Of a stretch of 64,000 nucleotides of DNA, positions 11,566-60,228 are shown piece by piece. The stretch is from Bacteriovoracaceae bacterium (lineage in GTDB: Bacteria > Bdellovibrionota > Bacteriovoracia > Bacteriovoracales > Bacteriovoracaceae), in assembly GCA_048270185.1 (NCBI GenBank), contig JBLWTJ010000004.1, positions 164,615-228,614 on the forward strand. The letters run 5' to 3'. The notes beneath the pieces were generated by a model. The model made no database searches, was not told the origin of the DNA, and worked only from the letters and a program-made list of their open reading frames with translations. The first letter of the stretch is position 1. Each line of letters opens with the position of its first letter. The translations under genes were made by a program, and so were the position numbers.

Positions 11566-13179
11566 TTAGAGTAAATTCTCAATTGTCATAATTGTACGAG
11601 ATAATAGGGGATCCTCTGGCAATTGTTTTGAGATTTTCTGTTCAGCATGGACAACTGAGCTGTGATCTCGTCCACCAAAGAACTGACCAATTTCTTCATG
11701 AGTTGCATTAGCAAGCTTACGACATAAGTACATGGCCACGAAACGCGCATTAGCGATATCCTTCGTACGTGATTTTGACTTAAGATCAGCAATAGGGATT
11801 TTAAAATGTGATGAAGTTTGCTTAGCAATTCCTTCTATTGTAATTTTCTTTTCATCTTCGAAATCTCTAAGTGAAAGAACCTCTTTAACCATCTCTAATT
11901 CGATATCAACCTTCATGATATCAGAGTAGGCTGAAAGCTTAATTAGAGCACCCTCAAGCTCTCTAATCGAGTTTTTAACGTTACAAGCGATAAGATTAAC
12001 AATGTCTTCAGATAGGAAAAGATCTAAGTCATCAGCCTTTGTATTAATGATGGCCGTACGAGTTTCAATATCTGGTTTTTGAATATCAACAACCAGACCC
12101 CACTGAAGGCGAGTCTTAATTCGCTCTTCAAGTCCGTTGATCTCTTGTGGTGTTTTATCTGATGTGAAAATTAATTGCTTACCTTTTTGGTGAAGTTCAT
12201 TAAAGATATGGAAGAATTCACGTTGTGTACCTTCTTTACCTTTAAGTTCATGAACATCATCAATCATTAGAACATCAACTTTATCAGAATATTTCGAACG
12301 GAAGTCCGCAAGTTTACCATCGTGAATGGCCTGAATCATTTCCTTCATAAAATCACGAGCTGTAATTAGACAGATGACATAGTGAGGGTATTGATTTTGA
12401 ATCCCATTTGCCATGGCATGAAGTAGGTGAGTTTTCCCTAGTCCAGAATTACTGTGAATATAAAGAGAAGGGTACTTACCTGATTTACCTGGATTCTTTG
12501 AGATAGCAACTGAGGCTGCGTGGGCCATATTATTTGAAGGACCAATAACAAAATTATCAAATGTTTTCGACTTATCGATGATGATGCGATTGTAGTCATC
12601 ATTTACGTGATCGATATACTTTGATTCAACCTTAGAAAGTAGGTCTTCTTGAACTGGCTCTAAATCTAGTGTGAAAGACATATCTGATAGGGTCTTTGGA
12701 CGAGATTGCTGAGTCGGCTCAACTTGAAGGTTTGAAGATAAGTTACTGTTATTATTAGTAATTATCTCAATTTCATAAGATTTACCCAATGTATTTACAA
12801 TACTTTGTCTAATTTGATCGATATCTTTTTCAATAAATGATTTTATGAAGTTTGTTGTTGTTGAAAAGATTGCTTTATCACCGCTAATTCTTTTAAGACG
12901 AAAGAAATCACCTTGGAAGAAAGAAGCATATTTTTGTGAATTTACTAATAATTTCAGTGTCTTATGAATTTCTTCATTCATCATATTAAGTTCATCTTGG
13001 CTAAAGAACTCATCTTCAGACACCTGATTTGAACTTGTCTGTGCTAGATTTTGCTTAATATTAAATGGATCTTCAATAATTGTGTTTTGATTATTGTTGA
13101 GATCGACTATGTTATTGATTTTATTAGGTTGTGTGCTAGAAGTTTTCAAAAATTCGTTAAAAGGAAAATTACCCTGCAT
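11566..13179 (-). CDS. dnaA: Chromosomal replication initiator DnaA
   Basis: TFDNFVIG, SGLGKTHLLHA, MIDDV, NSIRELEGAL, GGRDHSSVVHA. Confidence 0.99.
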   Translation of the reverse strand: MQGNFPFNEFLKTSSTQPNKINNIVDLNNNQNTIIEDPFNIKQNLAQTSSNQVSEDEFFSQDELNMMNEEIHKTLKLLVNSQKYASFFQGDFFRLKRISGDKAIFSTTTNFIKSFIEKDIDQIRQSIVNTLGKSYEIEIITNNNSNLSSNLQVEPTQQSRPKTLSDMSFTLDLEPVQEDLLSKVESKYIDHVNDDYNRIIIDKSKTFDNFVIGPSNNMAHAASVAISKNPGKSGKYPSLYIHSNSGLGKTHLLHAMANGIQNQYPHYVICLITARDFMKEMIQAIHDGKLADFRSKYSDKVDVLMIDDVHELKGKEGTQREFFHIFNELHQKGKQLIFTSDKTPQEINGLEERIKTRLQWGLVVDIQKPDIETRTAIINTKADDLDLFLSEDIVNLIACNVKNSIRELEGALIKLSAYSDIMKVDIELEMVKEVLSLRDFEDEKKITIEGIAKQTSSHFKIPIADLKSKSRTKDIANARFVAMYLCRKLANATHEEIGQFFGGRDHSSVVHAEQKISKQLPEDPLLSRTIMTIENLL

Positions 13180-15487: not shown

Positions 15488-17050
15488 ATGATTTACGAAA
15501 CGGATGACCTTCCTATTGTCGCTTGTTCGACTGGCCTAAATGAAAATACGGCCATAGGGGTTATCCGTTTATCTGGTTTTAATTCGATTGGTTCTATAGG
15601 ACCATTCTTCAAAAAAGATCTATCAAAACTCGAAGTACGAAAAGCAACTTTCACCAAACTCTACGACCAAGAAGGAAACTTCCTTGATGAGGTCGTTATT
15701 ACCTATTTTAAAGGTCCGCAAAGTTATAATGGTGAAAATATATTAGAGATAGCAGCACACGGTAATACACTCAATTTAAAGCGTATTATGAATGCTTTTA
15801 TAAACTCTGGTCAATTTCGTTTAGCAAAGAATGGTGAATTCACTTATCGTGCTCTAAAGAATAAGAAGCTCTCACTTGCTCAGGTCGAAGGACTTGATGC
15901 TCTTTTAAACGCTTCTTCTTCTCTAATGCTTGATGAAGGTTTGAAACTTTTAAATGGTAGTCTTTATCAAAAATATACTGATCTCTATGATAAATTCTTA
16001 AAGCTTAAGGCAGCAGTTGAAATTAATATCGATTTTGCGGAAGACGTAGGGGAAGAGCAATCACAAAAACTTCTCGATGAAGCTGTTGCTGATATTTCAG
16101 GCCATATTACTTCACTACATCGAAGTGCAAGTGTGAATGCAAAGAGTTTAATGTCACCAGATATCGTCCTTTGTGGTGAGCCTAATGCTGGTAAGAGCTC
16201 TTTGTTTAATCTATTTCTAAATGAATCGCGATCAATTGTTTCTGATATAGCTGGGACTACCAGAGATTATATTTCTGAATATATTAGCCTTGGTAATGAA
16301 ACTTTTAAACTTGTTGATACTGCAGGTCTTCGCAATACGACTGATGTTATTGAAGAAGAGGGTATTAAGAGAAGTCGTAATCTAATTGAAAATGCCTTCT
16401 ATAAAATACTTCTAGTGAATATAAATGAAGTCAAAAAATATCAATATCACGATATTAAAGAAACTCTTTTTGACGCTCTTATTTTTACACACTTTGATGA
16501 ATTTAAAGGTGATATTAATTTAGAGAATTTAAAAGCAAACCTTCCAGAGGCTATTAAATACTATAGTGCCGACACTTCAAAAGGTGAGGGAGGGCTTGTT
16601 GAAATAAGTGGTCCTATCGGACCAGATTCAGCAAGCGGTTCTATAGAACCAAGTGAAAATCATCTTGGTCCTATGGGGGCAGTTATACAAAATGGTCCTA
16701 TAGAACCAGAAAAAGAGCATGGTCCTACAGGGGCAATAACTGAATCAAATCAAGAAACTGGTCCTATAGAACCAGCTCATATAACAGAGTTAATTACTCA
16801 AGATATATTTGGTAAGTATACGAAATTACGTAATAGTGACCCGATCTCGATTGAGCGCCACCGTCTTGTTATCAATGATATTTATGGAAAATTCACAGAG
16901 TTTTCTAATAATATCAAGTATTTAAGTGATATTGCCATCATTTCATCAGAAGTATCAATTCTAGAAAAGAAAACTGCGGAACTTATTGGAATCATTAGTC
17001 CTGATGATACATTAAAGCATATCTTCACTAACTTCTGTATCGGTAAATAA
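15488..17050 (+). CDS. mnmE: tRNA modification GTPase MnmE (TrmE) with internal repeat insertion
   Basis: GEPNAGKSS, GTTRD, DTAG, terminal FCIGK; ATG at 15488 after the yidC stop. Confidence 0.96.
   Translation: MIYETDDLPIVACSTGLNENTAIGVIRLSGFNSIGSIGPFFKKDLSKLEVRKATFTKLYDQEGNFLDEVVITYFKGPQSYNGENILEIAAHGNTLNLKRIMNAFINSGQFRLAKNGEFTYRALKNKKLSLAQVEGLDALLNASSSLMLDEGLKLLNGSLYQKYTDLYDKFLKLKAAVEINIDFAEDVGEEQSQKLLDEAVADISGHITSLHRSASVNAKSLMSPDIVLCGEPNAGKSSLFNLFLNESRSIVSDIAGTTRDYISEYISLGNETFKLVDTAGLRNTTDVIEEEGIKRSRNLIENAFYKILLVNINEVKKYQYHDIKETLFDALIFTHFDEFKGDINLENLKANLPEAIKYYSADTSKGEGGLVEISGPIGPDSASGSIEPSENHLGPMGAVIQNGPIEPEKEHGPTGAITESNQETGPIEPAHITELITQDIFGKYTKLRNSDPISIERHRLVINDIYGKFTEFSNNIKYLSDIAIISSEVSILEKKTAELIGIISPDDTLKHIFTNFCIGK
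15589..15604. repeat. 16-bp palindrome TGGTTCTATAGGACCA (single copy in mnmE 5' region)
   Basis: Exact reverse complement of TGGTCCTATAGAACCA found at 16693, 16759, 21553 and 21580. Confidence 0.85.
16609..16774. repeat. Array of six TGGTYCTATAGRACCA-type palindromes inside mnmE
   Basis: Copies start at 16609, 16636, 16666, 16693, 16720 and 16759 (spacings 27, 30, 27, 27, 39). Confidence 0.95.
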
Positions 17051-17088
17051 TATATAAACCATTGATTTTTCTCTCTTTATGGCTTAAA

Positions 17089-17104
17089 TGTTCCACGTAG
17101 AACA
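17089..17104. promoter_or_regulatory. parS site TGTTCCACGTAGAACA
   Basis: Near-match to chromosomal parS consensus TGTTNCACGTGAAACA; between mnmE and mnmG. Confidence 0.85.
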
Positions 17105-17126
17105 TTATTCTCAAATAGACTTTAAA

Positions 17127-17142
17127 AGTTCCACGTGGAACA
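17127..17142. promoter_or_regulatory. parS site AGTTCCACGTGGAACA
   Basis: One mismatch from the perfect palindrome TGTTCCACGTGGAACA. Confidence 0.9.
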
Positions 17143-17154
17143 AATAGGAAACCT

Positions 17155-18996
17155 ATGTTTGATATCGCTATTATTGGTGGTGGTCATGCCGGACTTGAAG
17201 CCGCATGGGCCGCAGCTCAATTTGATTTGAAGGTCGCCATTGTTACAATGCCAGGAGTAAGTATTGCTTCAGCTCCATGTAACCCAGCAGTTGGTGGAGT
17301 TGGTAAGGGTCAGGTTGTAAGAGAGATTGATGCTCTTGGTGGTATCATGGGTAAGTTAGCTGATCAGAGTGCGATTCAATATCGAACATTAAATGAATCC
17401 AAAGGCTATGCTGTACAATCAACTCGAGTACAAATTGATAAGGAAGTCTATTCACGAAATGCTGAGGCTGCAGTAGCTGCCAATGCAAATATTGAAGTTA
17501 TCCGAGAGATGGTTGCAAAGGTCAGTAAGGATCAGGATGATTTTGTTATTAAGACAGATAAGGGCGAATATCTTGCTAAGAAAATTGTTGTTACGACAGG
17601 TACTTTCCTAGCGGGTAAGATGCACATAGGTGAGGAGCAATCTGAAGGTGGACGTGTTGATTGTTTGAAATCAGACTCACTTGAAGATATCTTTGTGGGT
17701 GTTACGGCACTTAAGACAAAGTTTAAAACAGGTACTCCAGCAAGACTTAAGCGTGATTCAATTGATTTTTCAAAGATGGTTGAACAAGAAAGTGATGCAA
17801 CAGCTATTAATTTCCACTATGGACATAAATTAACAGAAAGATTCATTGATCAAGTCTCTTGTCATTTAACAAAGACTAATGAGAAGACTTTAGGAATTAT
17901 AAGAGATAATAAAGAGAGAAGCCCGATCTTTAATGGACAGATTCAAGGGGTTGGTCCGAGATACTGTCCATCAATCGAAGATAAGGCCTATCGTTATGAA
18001 GATAAAGATGTACACCATGTCTTTGTTGAACCAGAATCTCTTGAATTAGATACTTTCTATCCAAATGGTATTTCAACATCACTTCCACGTGAAGTTCAGC
18101 TAGACTTTATCCGTACAATTGAAGGGCTTGAGAATGCTGAGATTGCTATCTATGGATATGCTGTTGAATACGATGTTGTTAATACAACTTGCCTCGATAG
18201 AACACTTCAGTCTAAAGAAATGCCAGGTCTATACTTTGCAGGGCAGGTAAATGGTACTTCAGGTTATGAAGAAGCTGCGGGACAAGGACTAATTGCAGGT
18301 ATTAATGCTGCCAGATCATTAATCGGTGCTGATACATTTATTCTTGATAGAGAAGATTCATATATAGGAGTTATGGTAGAAGACCTTGTTTCAAATCTTA
18401 GAGATGAGCCTTATCGTCTATTTACAGCTCGTAATGAGAATCGATTATACGTTAGAGAAGATAATACAATTCTACGCATGAAGAAATACCGCTCACAACT
18501 AGGACTTTATGCAGATATTGATCGCTATCAAGAGATGTTTGAACAGAGCTTTAATGTTATTTGGAGTATTGCTAAGAATTTCACGTATAAGGCAAATCCT
18601 GTTAATAAGAAATACTTTGAAGTGAGGGGTTATGGACCACTTAATACAAATATTACATTGGCCGAATTATCGAAGAGAGCTCACTTAAATCCAGTTGAAG
18701 TCTTGATGAGCGAATTAGCTACGAATATGATGGCCTTTGATGAGAATGTGATTCGAACAGTAGCTATCTCGCTTAAGTATGAAGGTTATATTGATCGTGC
18801 TCTTGTTGAGAACGCAAAGATTAATCGCCTTGCTAAGAAACCTATTGATTGGAAAGTACTAGTAGCTAGTGAGAATATCTCATTTGAGTGCCGCCAAAGA
18901 ATTACAGAGATTAAACCTGAAAGCTTTGGGCAATTACAGAGAATAGTAGGGATTCGCCCCGCAACCTTGGCCTTCGTTGCCGGAAATATTTTATGA
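17155..18996 (+). CDS. mnmG: tRNA uridine 5-carboxymethylaminomethyl modification enzyme MnmG (GidA)
   Basis: IIGGGHAGLEAA, CNPAVGG, GPRYCPSIEDK, GQVNGTSGYEEAAGQG. Confidence 0.98.
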   Translation: MFDIAIIGGGHAGLEAAWAAAQFDLKVAIVTMPGVSIASAPCNPAVGGVGKGQVVREIDALGGIMGKLADQSAIQYRTLNESKGYAVQSTRVQIDKEVYSRNAEAAVAANANIEVIREMVAKVSKDQDDFVIKTDKGEYLAKKIVVTTGTFLAGKMHIGEEQSEGGRVDCLKSDSLEDIFVGVTALKTKFKTGTPARLKRDSIDFSKMVEQESDATAINFHYGHKLTERFIDQVSCHLTKTNEKTLGIIRDNKERSPIFNGQIQGVGPRYCPSIEDKAYRYEDKDVHHVFVEPESLELDTFYPNGISTSLPREVQLDFIRTIEGLENAEIAIYGYAVEYDVVNTTCLDRTLQSKEMPGLYFAGQVNGTSGYEEAAGQGLIAGINAARSLIGADTFILDREDSYIGVMVEDLVSNLRDEPYRLFTARNENRLYVREDNTILRMKKYRSQLGLYADIDRYQEMFEQSFNVIWSIAKNFTYKANPVNKKYFEVRGYGPLNTNITLAELSKRAHLNPVEVLMSELATNMMAFDENVIRTVAISLKYEGYIDRALVENAKINRLAKKPIDWKVLVASENISFECRQRITEIKPESFGQLQRIVGIRPATLAFVAGNIL

Positions 18997-19658
18997 TGAA
19001 AGATACAGAGTTTTGTGAGAAATATCTCGAACAGATAAACGGTCCATTTGCTGGAATTAATTTAACACGTATTAATACACCAGAAGAATTTCATGCGAAA
19101 CAATATGTCGACAGTATAAGTCCTATCACTGATGTTCCAAGTCTTAAAAAGATTTATGAAAATACAAAGATCCATGTTGATATTGGTTTTGGGGGAGGCT
19201 TCCCGTTACTACCTCTTGCAAGTCTAAATCCTGATAAAAGATATATCGGATTTGAAGCACGTGGAAAAAAATCTAAGGTCGTAAACCAAATTGCTGAGGC
19301 CATTGGTCTTACAAATGTTAAGACATATCATCAGCGTTTTGAGAATGTTTACTTTGATCGAGATTGTACGATTACCTTTAAGGCAGTAAGCACAATCAAG
19401 AATCTTATACCTCTAATAATTACTGATAAAAAAATTAATATTATCTTCTATAAGGGGCCAAACTTCTATGAACTAGAAGACCTGGATTGGCTTGGAAAAG
19501 AATGGGAGATCGTCGAAGAGACTCATGTTGATATACCAGGAACTGAGGGACGTATTATGATTGCCCTTAAGAATAAAAATGTTCTACGTGGAACAGAGAT
19601 AGCAAGTTTTAGAAAAAATAAAAATAAAAATCTTGTCACATTGTCCTCATTTCTTTAA
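18993..19658 (+). CDS. rsmG: 16S rRNA m7G527 methyltransferase RsmG (GidB)
   Basis: INLTRI, VDIGFGGGFP SAM motif; between mnmG and parA. Confidence 0.9.
   Translation: MMKDTEFCEKYLEQINGPFAGINLTRINTPEEFHAKQYVDSISPITDVPSLKKIYENTKIHVDIGFGGGFPLLPLASLNPDKRYIGFEARGKKSKVVNQIAEAIGLTNVKTYHQRFENVYFDRDCTITFKAVSTIKNLIPLIITDKKINIIFYKGPNFYELEDLDWLGKEWEIVEETHVDIPGTEGRIMIALKNKNVLRGTEIASFRKNKNKNLVTLSSFL
19580..19595. promoter_or_regulatory. parS site TGTTCTACGTGGAACA within the rsmG 3' end
   Basis: Reverse complement of the 17089 site; 100 bp upstream of parA. Confidence 0.85.
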
Positions 19659-19694
19659 AAATATAGTTAGAAACTATTTTATGGGGAGACATAA

Positions 19695-20543
19695 ATGGCT
19701 AAAATCATTGCGCTTATGAATCAAAAGGGTGGAGTTGGTAAGACAACAACCACTATCAATCTTGCAGCTTGCCTAGCAGTAGCTGAGAAAAAGACTCTGG
19801 TAATTGATCTTGACCCTCAAGGGAATGGTAGCGTTAGCTTAGGTCTTGATTCGTCGCAGCATAGCAATAGTAATATCTATCATGCACTAATTGGAAGAAC
19901 AGATATTCGTGAAGCAATTTATGAAACAGAACTTCCAAATCTACATATTTGTCCTGCTGATAATAATCTATCAGGAGCAGAGATTGAGCTTGTAAGTGAG
20001 TTCGCTAGAGAGTCTAAGTTAAAGACTGCTTTTATGCCGATTATGGATGCTTATGACTACATTCTAATCGATTGCCCACCATCACTAGGCCTACTGACTG
20101 TAAACGCTCTAAATGCGGCTGACAGCTTCATAGTACCAATGCAGACAGAATATCTTGCAATGGAAGGTCTAGCTCAACTAGTAAACACAGTTAAATTAAT
20201 TAAAGCAAATTTAAATCCTACATTGGAAATGGGCGGAATCGTTCTTACGATGTTTGATGGAAGAGCTTCTCTTCACAAGCAAGTTGCTGAAGAGATTAGA
20301 AGGCACTTTGGCGATAAAGTATTTCAATCGGTAATACCTAGAAATGTAAAACTCGCCGAGTGCCCATCTTTTGGGAAACCTGTAATCCTTTACGATATTG
20401 AATCAAAGGGCTCAGAAGCATACCTAGCGCTAGCAAAAGAACTTATTATAAGAGATCGCGCTGTGGAAATTGAAAAAAATGAAATCCCTGAAGTACCTTC
20501 GGTAAATGAAATCGATAATACACTTCAAGGTAACATTCAGTAG
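19695..20543 (+). CDS. parA: Chromosome partitioning ATPase ParA/Soj
   Basis: NQKGGVGKTTT, DLDPQGN, IDCPPSLG, IPRNVKLAECPSFG. Confidence 0.97.
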   Translation: MAKIIALMNQKGGVGKTTTTINLAACLAVAEKKTLVIDLDPQGNGSVSLGLDSSQHSNSNIYHALIGRTDIREAIYETELPNLHICPADNNLSGAEIELVSEFARESKLKTAFMPIMDAYDYILIDCPPSLGLLTVNALNAADSFIVPMQTEYLAMEGLAQLVNTVKLIKANLNPTLEMGGIVLTMFDGRASLHKQVAEEIRRHFGDKVFQSVIPRNVKLAECPSFGKPVILYDIESKGSEAYLALAKELIIRDRAVEIEKNEIPEVPSVNEIDNTLQGNIQ

Positions 20544-20559
20544 GTAAGGGGAAAGAGAG

Positions 20560-21522
20560 ATGGCTAAAAAAATGGCACTAGGAAAAGGAATGGGTTCACT
20601 ATTAGGTGGTACTCCAAATTCATCAAAAGCTGCAAAAGCACAGGCTGCTTTTTCTGATCTACAAAAAGTAGCGGCCGAAAACCAGTCGGCGCAACCAGTT
20701 GCAAAACCACAGCAGACAGTACAGGTAGAAACTAACCCATCAATGCTTGATGTAAGTGTAATCTTTGCAAACCCAAATCAACCAAGAAAAATCTTTAAAG
20801 AAGAAGAGCTACATGAGCTTTCTAACTCAATTAAAGAAAACGGTGTTATTCAACCTCTAATCGTTGTTAAGGCCGATAATGGATATGAACTTGTAGCAGG
20901 AGAGAGAAGACTTCGTGCTTCTAAACTTGCAGGACTTACACAAGTTCCAGTTGTTATTAAAAGAGCAACAGATCGTGAAAAGATGGTTATGTCGATCATC
21001 GAAAACGTTCAAAGATCTGATCTAAACTGCGTTGAAGAAGCTCTTGCTTACTTCGCACTAATGGAAGATTTCAACTTAACTCAAGAAGAAGTTGCTAAAA
21101 AAGTTGGTAAAGAAAGATCAACGATTGCAAACTTTCTTAGAATTCTAAAGCTTCCAAGAGATGTTGTAGAGCTTATTCAGAAGGATCAACTTTCTTTTGG
21201 TCACGCAAAAATTCTTGCAGGTGTAAAAGAGAGAGAAGATTGTATTCGCATTGCAAATAAAGCGGCAGTAGATAATTTATCAGTTAGAGAAACTGAGAAA
21301 TTAATTAAAGCTTCAAAACGTGCACCAAAAGTCGTTAAAGAAGAAGAGAACTTTGATTTCTTTAATGGGAAAATGGCGCAATATAGAGAAAAACTAGAAC
21401 AACGTACTGGATATCATTTTGGAATTAAAACTAATAAGAATGGTGGCGGAGAAGTTGTTTTAAAATTTTCTAATGAAGCCGAATTTAATGATATTTACGA
21501 GTATCTATTAACGAACAGATAA
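20560..21522 (+). CDS. parB: Chromosome partitioning protein ParB/Spo0J
   Basis: LGKGMGSLL N-terminal peptide, NPNQPRK, AGERRLRA, ENVQRSDL, HTH RSTIANFLR. Confidence 0.97.
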   Translation: MAKKMALGKGMGSLLGGTPNSSKAAKAQAAFSDLQKVAAENQSAQPVAKPQQTVQVETNPSMLDVSVIFANPNQPRKIFKEEELHELSNSIKENGVIQPLIVVKADNGYELVAGERRLRASKLAGLTQVPVVIKRATDREKMVMSIIENVQRSDLNCVEEALAYFALMEDFNLTQEEVAKKVGKERSTIANFLRILKLPRDVVELIQKDQLSFGHAKILAGVKEREDCIRIANKAAVDNLSVRETEKLIKASKRAPKVVKEEENFDFFNGKMAQYREKLEQRTGYHFGIKTNKNGGGEVVLKFSNEAEFNDIYEYLLTNR

Positions 21523-21525
21523 TTC

Positions 21526-21595
21526 TGGTCCTATGGGACCAGTTTTAACTACTGGTCCTATAGAACCAAACTAAATAAATGGTCCTATAGAACCA
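21526..21595. repeat. Three TGGTCCTATRGRACCA palindromes, 27-bp period, between parB and bactofilin
   Basis: Copies at 21526, 21553 and 21580; same motif as the mnmE array. Confidence 0.95.
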
Positions 21596-59082: not shown

Positions 59083-60228
59083 ATGTTAAATATTGAAGAA
59101 ATTAAAACTAAATTAATTGATGTTAAAAACCCAAATTCTGGAGAATCACTTCTTAATGAAAATCGTTTTAAGGACATTGCAATTAAAGATGAAAATTTAA
59201 CTCTAGTTTATAATCGCGATGGTATAACTCCAGAGCAAAAGCGCTCGATTGAAGATGATATTGTTGCAAAGCTTTCGTCAGTTATTAACGAAGATAATCT
59301 CTTTATTAAAACGATCTCAACTCAAGAGGCACCTGCTCAGGCTAAGCAAAAGCCAAAACAAGAGGGTGCAAAACTTGAGGTCGGTCACGCAAAAGGTGCG
59401 CCTCAAAAACGTAGTATTGATGGTGTTTCTAAGATTATTGCAGTCTCATCAGGTAAGGGTGGAGTTGGAAAAAGTACAGTTTCGGTTAACCTTGCACTTG
59501 CACTTAAAAATGCTGGTAAGAAAGTAGGTCTTTTAGATGCAGATATTTATGGTCCTTCTATTCCAATGCTTCTAGGTCAAAGAGATGCTAAACCTCTTGC
59601 AACAGAATCAAAGAAGATTGCCCCTATAGAATCACACGGTTTAAAGTTTATCAGCTTCGGTCTTTTCATCGAAGAGAAGGATGCGGTTATTTGGCGTGGA
59701 CCAATGCTTGGTGGCGTACTTAATCAATTTCTTTTTGATGTTGAGTGGGGTGAGCTTGATTATCTTATTCTTGATCTACCTCCAGGAACTGGTGATGTTC
59801 AGCTTTCAATCGCGCAAACTCTCAATTTAGACGGTATTATTGGTGTTTCGACTCCACAAGATGTTGCTATCCTAGACTCTAGAAAAGGTCTAAATATGTT
59901 TGAACAAGTAAATGTACCTGTTCTTGGTTTAGTTGAAAATATGAGTTACTTTGCACCAGATGATATGCCTGAGAAGAAGTACTATATCTTCGGTGAAAAT
60001 GGTGGAGCAGACATTGCAAAAGAGCTTGGCTATAACTTCTTAGGTGGTGTTCCAATAGAAATTGCCCTTAGAGAGTCTTGTGATAAGGGCCTTCCTTATA
60101 TGGCCAATATGTCATACGAAAATAGGCCAGTATGGAATGCTTATTCCTCTATTGCAAAAAAGATAGTTGAGTTAGAAAATGGAGAAGGAAAGGAAAAAGG
60201 TTTTTTCTCAAAAATTTTCAAAAGGTAA
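59083..60228 (+). CDS. mrp: Mrp/ApbC (NBP35) family Fe-S carrier ATPase
   Basis: SGKGGVGKST, DADIYGPS, WRGPM, DLPPGTGD, VENMS. Confidence 0.93.
   Translation: MLNIEEIKTKLIDVKNPNSGESLLNENRFKDIAIKDENLTLVYNRDGITPEQKRSIEDDIVAKLSSVINEDNLFIKTISTQEAPAQAKQKPKQEGAKLEVGHAKGAPQKRSIDGVSKIIAVSSGKGGVGKSTVSVNLALALKNAGKKVGLLDADIYGPSIPMLLGQRDAKPLATESKKIAPIESHGLKFISFGLFIEEKDAVIWRGPMLGGVLNQFLFDVEWGELDYLILDLPPGTGDVQLSIAQTLNLDGIIGVSTPQDVAILDSRKGLNMFEQVNVPVLGLVENMSYFAPDDMPEKKYYIFGENGGADIAKELGYNFLGGVPIEIALRESCDKGLPYMANMSYENRPVWNAYSSIAKKIVELENGEGKEKGFFSKIFKR

Follow-up and report, generated by a model that had tools for sequence, protein, structure and literature searches.

What reads a palindrome that is repeated on both sides of an ordinary chromosomal centromere? 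The question is raised by a 64-kb stretch of the genome of a Bacteriovoracaceae bacterium (hereafter the window; G000:C4:164615-228614 of a 3.35-Mb assembly with 36.5% G+C), in which a 16-bp palindrome, TGGTYCTATAGRACCA, recurs in clusters around the canonical parS sites and the genes for ParA1 and ParB1 in the origin region. An earlier note on this DNA had proposed that these clusters form a second binding array for a dimeric protein, perhaps linked to the neighbouring bactofilin. Our analyses indicate that the motif is very probably a protein-binding site, selected at the level of DNA and tied to the origin. As its reader we propose ParB2, a Bacteriovoracaceae-specific ParB paralogue for which the palindrome would be the nucleation site; binding is what we infer from sequence comparisons, and we put the probability of this reading at roughly 0.55.

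The motif copies, and the genes and sites among which they lie, are as follows (window coordinates).

15589..15604: motif copy 1 (TGGTTCTATAGGACCA), in the N-terminal domain of mnmE, read G-S-I-G-P
16609..16774: six-copy array in mnmE, with starts at 16609, 16636, 16666, 16693, 16720 and 16759, each copy read G-[PS]-[IMT]-[EG]-[PA]
21526..21595: non-coding three-copy array, with starts at 21526, 21553 and 21580, between the parB stop codon and the bactofilin start
11566..13179, minus strand: dnaA (Pfam), which marks the origin region
15488..17050, plus strand: mnmE, a tRNA-modification GTPase of 520 residues (Pfam TrmE_N, MMR_HSR1, MnmE_helical), host to seven motif copies
17089..17142: two canonical parS sites (17089 and 17127), between mnmE and mnmG
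19580..19595: third canonical parS site, at the rsmG end
19695-20543, plus strand: parA, encoding ParA1 (Pfam, NCBIfam)
20560-21522, plus strand: parB, encoding ParB1 (Pfam, NCBIfam), with parS-type contact residues
21617..21949, plus strand: bactofilin gene (Pfam PF04519), downstream of the non-coding array

A pattern scan of the window found the palindrome at all ten of the coordinates noted earlier. Eight copies (15589, 16609, 16636, 16693, 16759, 21526, 21553 and 21580) have 0-1 mismatch to TGGTYCTATAGRACCA; those at 16666 and 16720 have 3 mismatches each, with an intact left half and a right half reading GGGGCA. Chance would supply 0.07 matches per window at ≤2 mismatches and 0.61 at ≤3, and the respective counts of 8 and 11 were reached in 0 of 100 shuffles. 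The copies at 16693, 16759, 21553 and 21580 are one identical sequence and that at 15589 is its exact reverse complement, just as had been described. A 27-bp period had been claimed for both clusters; it fits most start-to-start intervals, namely both of those in the intergenic array (27, 27) and three of the five in mnmE (27, 30, 27, 27, 39), where the 30 and 39 depart from it. The spacers are indeed unrelated: Tandem Repeats Finder called neither array, because only the 16-bp core is shared. This core has one degenerate symmetric pair (Y5/R12) and a nearly invariant TATA centre, and its flanks are unconserved, being mildly A-rich upstream and T-rich downstream.

Pfam bore out the gene names given earlier (mnmE, parB, bactofilin), and the gene order is dnaA (minus strand), rnpA, yidC, mnmE, mnmG, rsmG, parA, parB, bactofilin and the ATP-synthase genes. 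The GC skew has its sign change and minimum near 12 kb, at dnaA, and the arrays lie 2-9 kb from this minimum. The motif clusters enclose three ordinary parS sites at 17089, 17127 and 19580, as had been stated, each with 1 mismatch to the parS consensus pattern. A separate 3-mismatch variant (TGCCCCTATAGAATCA) lies at 59619-59634, in frame (A-P-I-E-S) within an open reading frame (ORF) of 389 residues; a close relative of it recurs in other genomes of the family, away from the origin cluster, and it is probably the coincidence of a conserved protein motif.

Is the motif particular to the origin? The genome-wide scan that the earlier note had proposed revealed no scatter: all 8 copies with ≤1 mismatch in the 3.35-Mb genome fall in one 6-kb stretch beside dnaA and parAB. 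Allowing 2 mismatches added 3 genomic matches elsewhere, about the number expected by chance with the rate scaled from the window. When perfect and near-perfect palindromes of 14 and 16 bp were enumerated over the whole genome, the motif was the one over-represented family without an AT-rich sequence. Two further near-palindromes (half-sites TTCTTCAA and TGAATCAA) form pairs at three places on C1 of the same genome (near 1089044/1090856, 1152329/1153179 and 1656976/1657929), the members of a pair lying about 0.9-1.8 kb from each other, and single copies occur elsewhere; a repeated element may have its ends or internal sites there.

We mapped the genes, motif copies and parS sites of the origin locus in the window and 20 relatives, with 104 copies at ≤1 mismatch. 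In all mapped loci the copies are confined to the segment from dnaA to atp, with 63 in mnmE, 32 intergenic, 4 in dnaA (one each in four genomes of the same genus), 3 in mnmG, 1 in yidC and 1 in rsmG, so that 72 lie in coding sequence. An N-terminal mnmE copy stands at a similar position in five genomes of the same genus, the window included, and in G013, G016 and G024. Of the 15 loci with both flanks covered, 14 have copies on either side of the parS group, and G014 is the only locus with copies between parS sites. On the near flank they come within 285-700 bp of parS in most loci (2.7 kb in G018); on the far flank most loci have them about 1.9 kb from parS, directly after parB, and G013 and G020 have them 13-15 kb away, beyond the atp operon. 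The spacer between parB and bactofilin holds copies in only 11 of the 16 genomes whose locus covers it (window included), and nothing here ties the bactofilin to the sites; this part of the earlier proposal found no support.

Because copy number and position differ between genomes, and because the arrays resemble local duplications, the copies might be taken for a selfish or neutral repeat, either of the REP/MITE type (repetitive extragenic palindrome or miniature inverted-repeat transposable element) or an expanding minisatellite, with no trans-acting reader. We regard this as scarcely credible. A dispersed repeat of the REP/MITE type was rejected on the absence of any copy at ≤1 mismatch outside the locus and on the unconserved flanks; conservation is limited to the 16-bp core amid unrelated spacers, and the same 16 bases occupy the same locus across genera whose MnmE is only 37-60% identical to that of the window.

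The earlier claim that the constraint lies on DNA rather than peptide is supported by the intergenic copies, by the use of two reading frames and by a peptide that varies at the degenerate DNA positions. The coding copies are spread over five genes. In one frame they read G-[PS]-I-[EG]-P (69 copies) and in another W-[SF]-Y-R-T, once R-F-Y-R-T (3 copies, at three different places in mnmG); the third frame is impossible because it contains TAG. Across the 69 in-frame copies the codon for Gly is always GGT (69), that for Ile is ATA in 61 cases and that for the final Pro is CCA in 63; this invariance is partly built in, as copies were picked by motif similarity, and more is to be learned from the non-synonymous variation at degenerate positions and from the accompanying controls. 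Genome-wide, ATA makes up 12.5% of Ile codons. Residues 2 and 4 alternate between P and S and between E and G precisely at the degenerate positions of the motif. Among 1780 long ORFs, the peptide G[PS]I[EG]P is found 5 times, each time in a motif copy.

Between its G domain and C-terminal helices, the MnmE of the window is about 59 residues longer than a solved MnmE, the extra stretch being a hypervariable, low-complexity, family-specific loop built of motif units (window 16601-16780, residues about 372-430). Across the family, MnmE length tracks copy number, from 441 to 535 residues (leaving out one 600-residue ORF call, which is probably over-extended), and the MnmE proteins of G017 and G018 (451 and 453 residues) have no insertion, nor has their mnmE any copy at ≤1 mismatch. 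The insertion is dictated by the cis-element and not by enzyme function.

Two further readings of these copies need no DNA-binding protein, namely that they are RNA or DNA hairpins (terminators, attenuators, mRNA-stability elements), or that a peptide is selected in MnmE and the non-coding copies are relics. For the first, several copies score as terminator-like, above all that at 21525-21542, which in a consensus scan is extended by one pair, is followed by TTTT (to 21546) and stands 3 bases after the parB stop codon; this first non-coding copy could double as a terminator. The A-rich and T-rich flanks agree with a hairpin, and the in-frame mnmE copies with a peptide. On the other side, positions 5 and 12 of the sense strand are most often C..A (28 of the 69 coding copies), which cannot pair, so RNA hairpins are not what is conserved; base identity is kept rather than pairing, as in the TATA centre, and sense-strand terminators within mnmE, dnaA, mnmG, yidC and rsmG would be harmful. 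A selected peptide is at odds with the 32 of 104 copies that are intergenic, with the second frame, with the variation at degenerate positions and with the two MnmE proteins that lack the insertion. Taken together, these hairpin and peptide readings are very improbable.

How far does the element extend? In an evenly sampled set of 301 genomes from the phylum, exact copies are present in 61 of 67 family genomes (Bacteriovoracaceae/Halobacteriovorax by record labels) vs 0 of 233 outside, and a reversed control pattern gave 0 matches in the family genomes of this sample. Five of the six family genomes with no exact copy were checked, and all five hold variants with 1-2 mismatches: in G209, G237 and G290 these lie 2.4-6.9 kb from the ParB1 gene, in G220 a 1-mismatch variant and ParB1 are on different contigs, and in G276 ParB1 was not found. 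Among 40 relatives the motif occurs at ≤1 mismatch in 23 of the 24 from the same family, the exception being G010, which is 78% complete, so that neither of the two computational outcomes that the earlier note had named as refuting, genome-wide scatter and absence from relatives, was observed. Outside the family, 1 of 16 genomes, G026, has matches, with 1-2 mismatches and scattered over separate contigs. A scan for two adjacent copies in one genome per species (185,579 species) returned 87 stretches, and among the 80 of these listed nearly all are labelled Bacteriovorax, Halobacteriovorax, Bacteriovoracaceae or Bdellovibrionales. Five stretches with foreign labels (Acidobacteriota, Paenibacillus, a cyanobacterium, Muribaculaceae and Mariniphaga) were rejected, as none has a complete motif; they are inside-out hairpins, in about the number that chance would give. 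By these counts the element is a hallmark of this family of predatory bacteria.

Viral contigs yielded 82 stretches, almost all with single matches, which by a rough estimate is about chance level. One viral contig, IMGVR_UViG_638275427_000001 (191,100 bp), has 9 exact matches across seven loci; at one of these (L208, 53076-54325), 3 copies lie inside a 313-bp tandem repeat with 38-bp sub-repeats that is unrelated to the bacterial arrays.

The genome encodes three proteins with a ParB_N domain, the canonical ParB1 in the window and two paralogues. One paralogue (328 residues, G000:C1:69160-70143, minus strand) was rejected as reader: it has clear orthologues in only 15 of 24 family genomes and was not found in the motif-bearing G012, G013, G014, G016-G020 and G024. 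It consists of the N-domain only, followed by a long, helical, acidic tail. The other paralogue is encoded, with a ParA-like partner, outside the window.

G000:C1:1559004-1559906, minus strand: parB2, encoding ParB2 (300 residues), directly downstream of parA2
C1:1559986-1560765: parA2, encoding ParA2, a ParA-like ATPase of 259 residues with a KGGVGKT Walker box

Clear ParB2 orthologues are encoded by 23 of the 24 family genomes, G010 has a fragment at the end of a contig, and the 16 outside genomes have no orthologue; for the phylum sample the counts are 67 of 67 family genomes vs 0 of 233 outside. The listing of ParB paralogues and their co-occurrence that the earlier note had suggested leads in this way to a paralogue of the kind it had guessed at, with exactly the phyletic range of the motif, and 4 of 5 motif-bearing genomes with other labels encode it as well. 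Since synteny is kept in 20 of 20 loci (nadA, usually a rhodanese gene, parA2-parB2, usually a 271-residue ORF, gdh), parA2-parB2 is a core chromosomal operon, not a mobile element. In 15 of the 20 family loci the gene after parB2 is the 271-residue ORF (L014 49-864, minus strand; G000:C1 about 1558032-1558847), at 23-100% identity; its product has a hydrophobic N-terminus and no Pfam or NCBIfam match, and could be a third component or a mere neighbour.

ParB1 and ParB2 are 29% identical over 133 residues, and ParA1 and ParA2 are 32% identical. ParB2 scores 89.4 bits against the NCBIfam ParB/RepB/Spo0J model TIGR00180 (cut-off 58.45) and 57 bits against Pfam ParB_N (cut-off 26.3), and its best sequence matches in the PDB are Noc, then also ParB, with alignments that run through the helix-turn-helix (HTH) region of these structures. 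It is not a Noc, to judge by 87.1 bits against TIGR04285, whose cut-off is 315, and by sites that occur only at the origin. An AlphaFold2 model (mean predicted local distance difference test score 77) superposes on the ParB, Noc and KorB clamps with E 6e-11 and a template-modelling (TM) score of up to 0.74. In the GERRxR box, the signature for cytidine triphosphate (CTP) binding, all 17 aligned sequences share G105, E106, R107, R108 and A111. A search of 1.84 billion representative proteins gave just 9 matches with E ≤ 1e-30, after which scores fall from 288 to about 90 bits, so that by sequence ParB2 is an isolated clade. No plasmid system with a known centromere could serve as a guide, as ParB2 shares at most 36% identity with any plasmid ParB in the 12 records listed.

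The recognition surface is where the two paralogues part. The available part of PMC7383237 gives Q162, G170, K171, S172, N178 and R204 as conserved DNA contacts, and 173, 179, 184 and 201 as specificity positions; we fixed the residue columns by an alignment to Noc, which shows Q, K, K and R at 173/179/184/201 in agreement with that portion of the paper. ParB1 has Q162, G170, K171, R173, N178 and G201 and is of the parS type. At the equivalent positions ParB2 has E162, G170, I/V/T171, S172, K173, R178, K184, Y201 and L204, and in its own numbering E167, G175, S177, K178, R183 and Y206 are invariant in the 17 sequences. Of the six shared contacts, four have been altered and then frozen, and so have both base-specifying positions (173 and 201), as should be expected of a surface that has acquired a new, conserved specificity.

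Could the copies simply be variant parS sites, read by ParB1 and enlarging the ordinary centromere? They lie a few hundred bases to 2 kb from parS and have 10 of 16 positions in common with the local parS sites, that is 5 of 8 per half-site (binomial p ~0.03), the figure that had been noted earlier. They depart from local parS at half-site positions 3, 7 and 8 and hence do not match the canonical consensus; position 7, in the excerpted text of PMC7383237, belongs to the pair of positions that distinguish parS from the Noc site, and the same text reports that single changes at specificity positions, in the site or in the protein, switch or abolish binding. ParB1, moreover, has the standard parS contacts, the motif is absent from the 233 phylum genomes of other families, which do have ParB, and the two types of site stay distinct, with no intermediates, in every locus examined. 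A wider parS class is a most unlikely account of the copies.

ParB2 is favoured as reader because its phyletic range is identical to that of the motif, because the site has a parS-like form, because the recognition surface is altered and invariant, and because there is no alternative site. With no competing palindrome found, the origin arrays are the only visible parS-like site family for a ParB2 that would otherwise be site-less. The 300 bp upstream of parA2 showed, in 20 genomes, no conserved palindrome and no motif copy, with sporadic half-sites in four genomes.

Several points weigh against ParB2. As it and the motif are both family-wide, their co-distribution amounts to one evolutionary event and carries little statistical weight, and many other genes must share such a distribution. 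In six genomes parA2-parB2 lies 260-370 kb from the sites on the same contig, and partition cassettes usually keep the centromere beside their genes. One motif-bearing assembly, of 1.9 Mb and possibly incomplete, has no ParB2 match; the Pfam HTH_ParB model gives 18.5 bits, below its cut-off of 22.6; and ParB2 could bind a single-copy or non-palindromic site, which would be invisible to scans for over-representation.

These points leave room for a different dimeric protein on the arrays, for example a GntR-like winged-helix regulator, a RacA-like origin anchor or a replication-control factor, with ParB2 acting elsewhere. A conserved, origin-restricted site selected at the DNA level is silent on the fold of its reader, the sites do not adjoin parA2-parB2, their outer TGGT...ACCA arms presumably recall the operators of winged-helix GntR-type regulators, and the distance of the arrays from the GC-skew minimum makes a role in replication control conceivable. 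However, the conserved locus dnaA-rnpA-yidC-mnmE-mnmG-rsmG-parA-parB-bactofilin-atp contains no such gene, and the operators of a regulator would be expected at promoters, yet 72 of 104 copies are in coding sequence. Site length, symmetry and the 5/8 half-site match to parS fit a ParB-type reader, and a family-specific ParB exists with an altered recognition surface and no other visible site. We consider a reader of this other kind less likely than ParB2, though likelier than the remaining alternatives.

If ParB2 is the reader, its dimers would recognise the 16-bp palindromes through an HTH whose base-contacting residues are unlike those of canonical ParB. As ParB2 keeps the GERRxR CTP motif, it would probably close as a CTP-dependent clamp and accumulate around the arrays, so that the origin region would bear a second nucleoprotein complex, flanking that of ParB1 and parS on either side; ParA2 might then position or anchor this second complex. 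The arrays may have arisen by local duplication of short units, and many units may have come to be housed in frame in permissive loops of origin-proximal genes, above all the MnmE loop, because intergenic space is scarce at this locus. As to function, the sites could be a second centromere moved by ParA2, an origin anchor, the targets of a KorB-like regulator or a fence for ParB1 clamps.

A bolder proposal, which we advance tentatively and with more doubt than confidence, is that one Bacteriovoracaceae origin carries two orthogonal ParABS-type systems, the second made up of ParA2, ParB2 and the palindrome and partly coded within gene loops, with ParB2 both marking the origin for a task of ParA2 and fencing ParB1 clamps. 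Such a design would be in keeping with arrays that bracket the parS-parAB1 segment and with host loops that would belong to essential origin-proximal genes. The separate ParA2-driven task could be pole anchoring in the attack-phase cell, as against segregation in the multi-nucleoid growing filament.

As a rule, bacterial chromosomes are credited with one ParB-parS centromere per replicon; of the second ParB-type systems already known, some serve another replicon and others, like Noc, avoid a centromere role. Our literature search (Halobacteriovorax, Bacteriovorax and Bdellovibrio ParB/parS; second ParABS or orphan ParB), supplements aside, turned up neither an account of the motif nor one of a second ParB in these bacteria. 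Ordinary origin-terminus Hi-C contacts are reported for Bacteriovorax chromatin in the accessible portion of PMC11789641, and the motif is not mentioned in that portion. What appears to be new here is a ParB-type site family and a candidate orthogonal ParAB pair on the origin of a canonical system, with sites that have shaped the MnmE loop. If the proposal is right, it would supply a natural case of two orthogonal CTP-clamp systems sharing a few kilobases, and questions about the divergence of specificity in the ParB family, the mutual blocking of different clamps and origin organisation in predators with a non-binary cycle would become testable. The MnmE variable loop is a clear example of a cis-element that shapes a protein, its sequence dictated by DNA-binding sites, and an orthogonal ParB/site pair could also be useful as a DNA-labelling tool.

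How does the putative system compare with those already described? Like chromosomal ParABS, it comprises multiple copies of a 16-bp palindrome that lie no more than about 10 kb from oriC, are often intragenic and are conserved across a taxon; its candidate reader combines a ParB N-domain and GERRxR box with a putative HTH, and its operon also encodes a ParA-like partner. Unlike chromosomal ParABS, the motif differs at 3/8 half-site positions, the canonical system is also present and interleaved, the candidate genes are about 300 kb from the sites, and the copies form tight arrays at 24-39-bp spacing.

Noc of the Firmicutes offers a parallel for a change of specificity, as it is a ParB paralogue that, in the available text of PMC7383237, gained a new 16-bp palindromic specificity through few HTH changes; the pairing of a ParB paralogue with a 16-bp palindrome, and the rank of Noc structures among the PDB matches, are points of likeness. 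Noc sites are scattered around the chromosome, according to the available part of PMC4331003. ParB2, in contrast, falls far below the Noc model cut-off (87 vs 315 bits) and the motif sites are found only at the origin. To our knowledge Noc has no ParA partner; ParB2 has one.

Among bactofilin-associated systems, the PadC-bactofilin-ParABS system of Myxococcus also has a ParB-like protein, and here too a bactofilin gene stands beside parAB. PadC (6ryk) is a weak structural match to the ParB2 model over the N-domain, at rank 27, whereas ParB2 aligns through the HTH region of the ParB and Noc structures, and parB2 is not beside the bactofilin gene.

Plasmids provide two further comparisons. The sopC centromere of the F plasmid, read by SopB, and type Ia centromeres consist of tandem short units with a 16-bp inverted repeat, a ParB-family reader and a ParA partner; the motif arrays, unlike these, are chromosomal, split in two or more around another centromere, and partly coding. 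KorB of RK2, with its OB sites and IncC, is likewise a CTP-dependent ParB-family clamp with multiple palindromic sites and a ParA-like partner, and the ParB2 model reaches its highest TM-score, 0.74, with KorB (8qa9). KorB is a global repressor of its plasmid with sites at promoters, whereas most motif sites are intragenic. Finally, ParAB2-parS2 of Vibrio cholerae is a second ParAB pair with its own site, and it serves a second replicon; in the present bacterium, by contrast, both sets of sites lie on one origin region of one chromosome.

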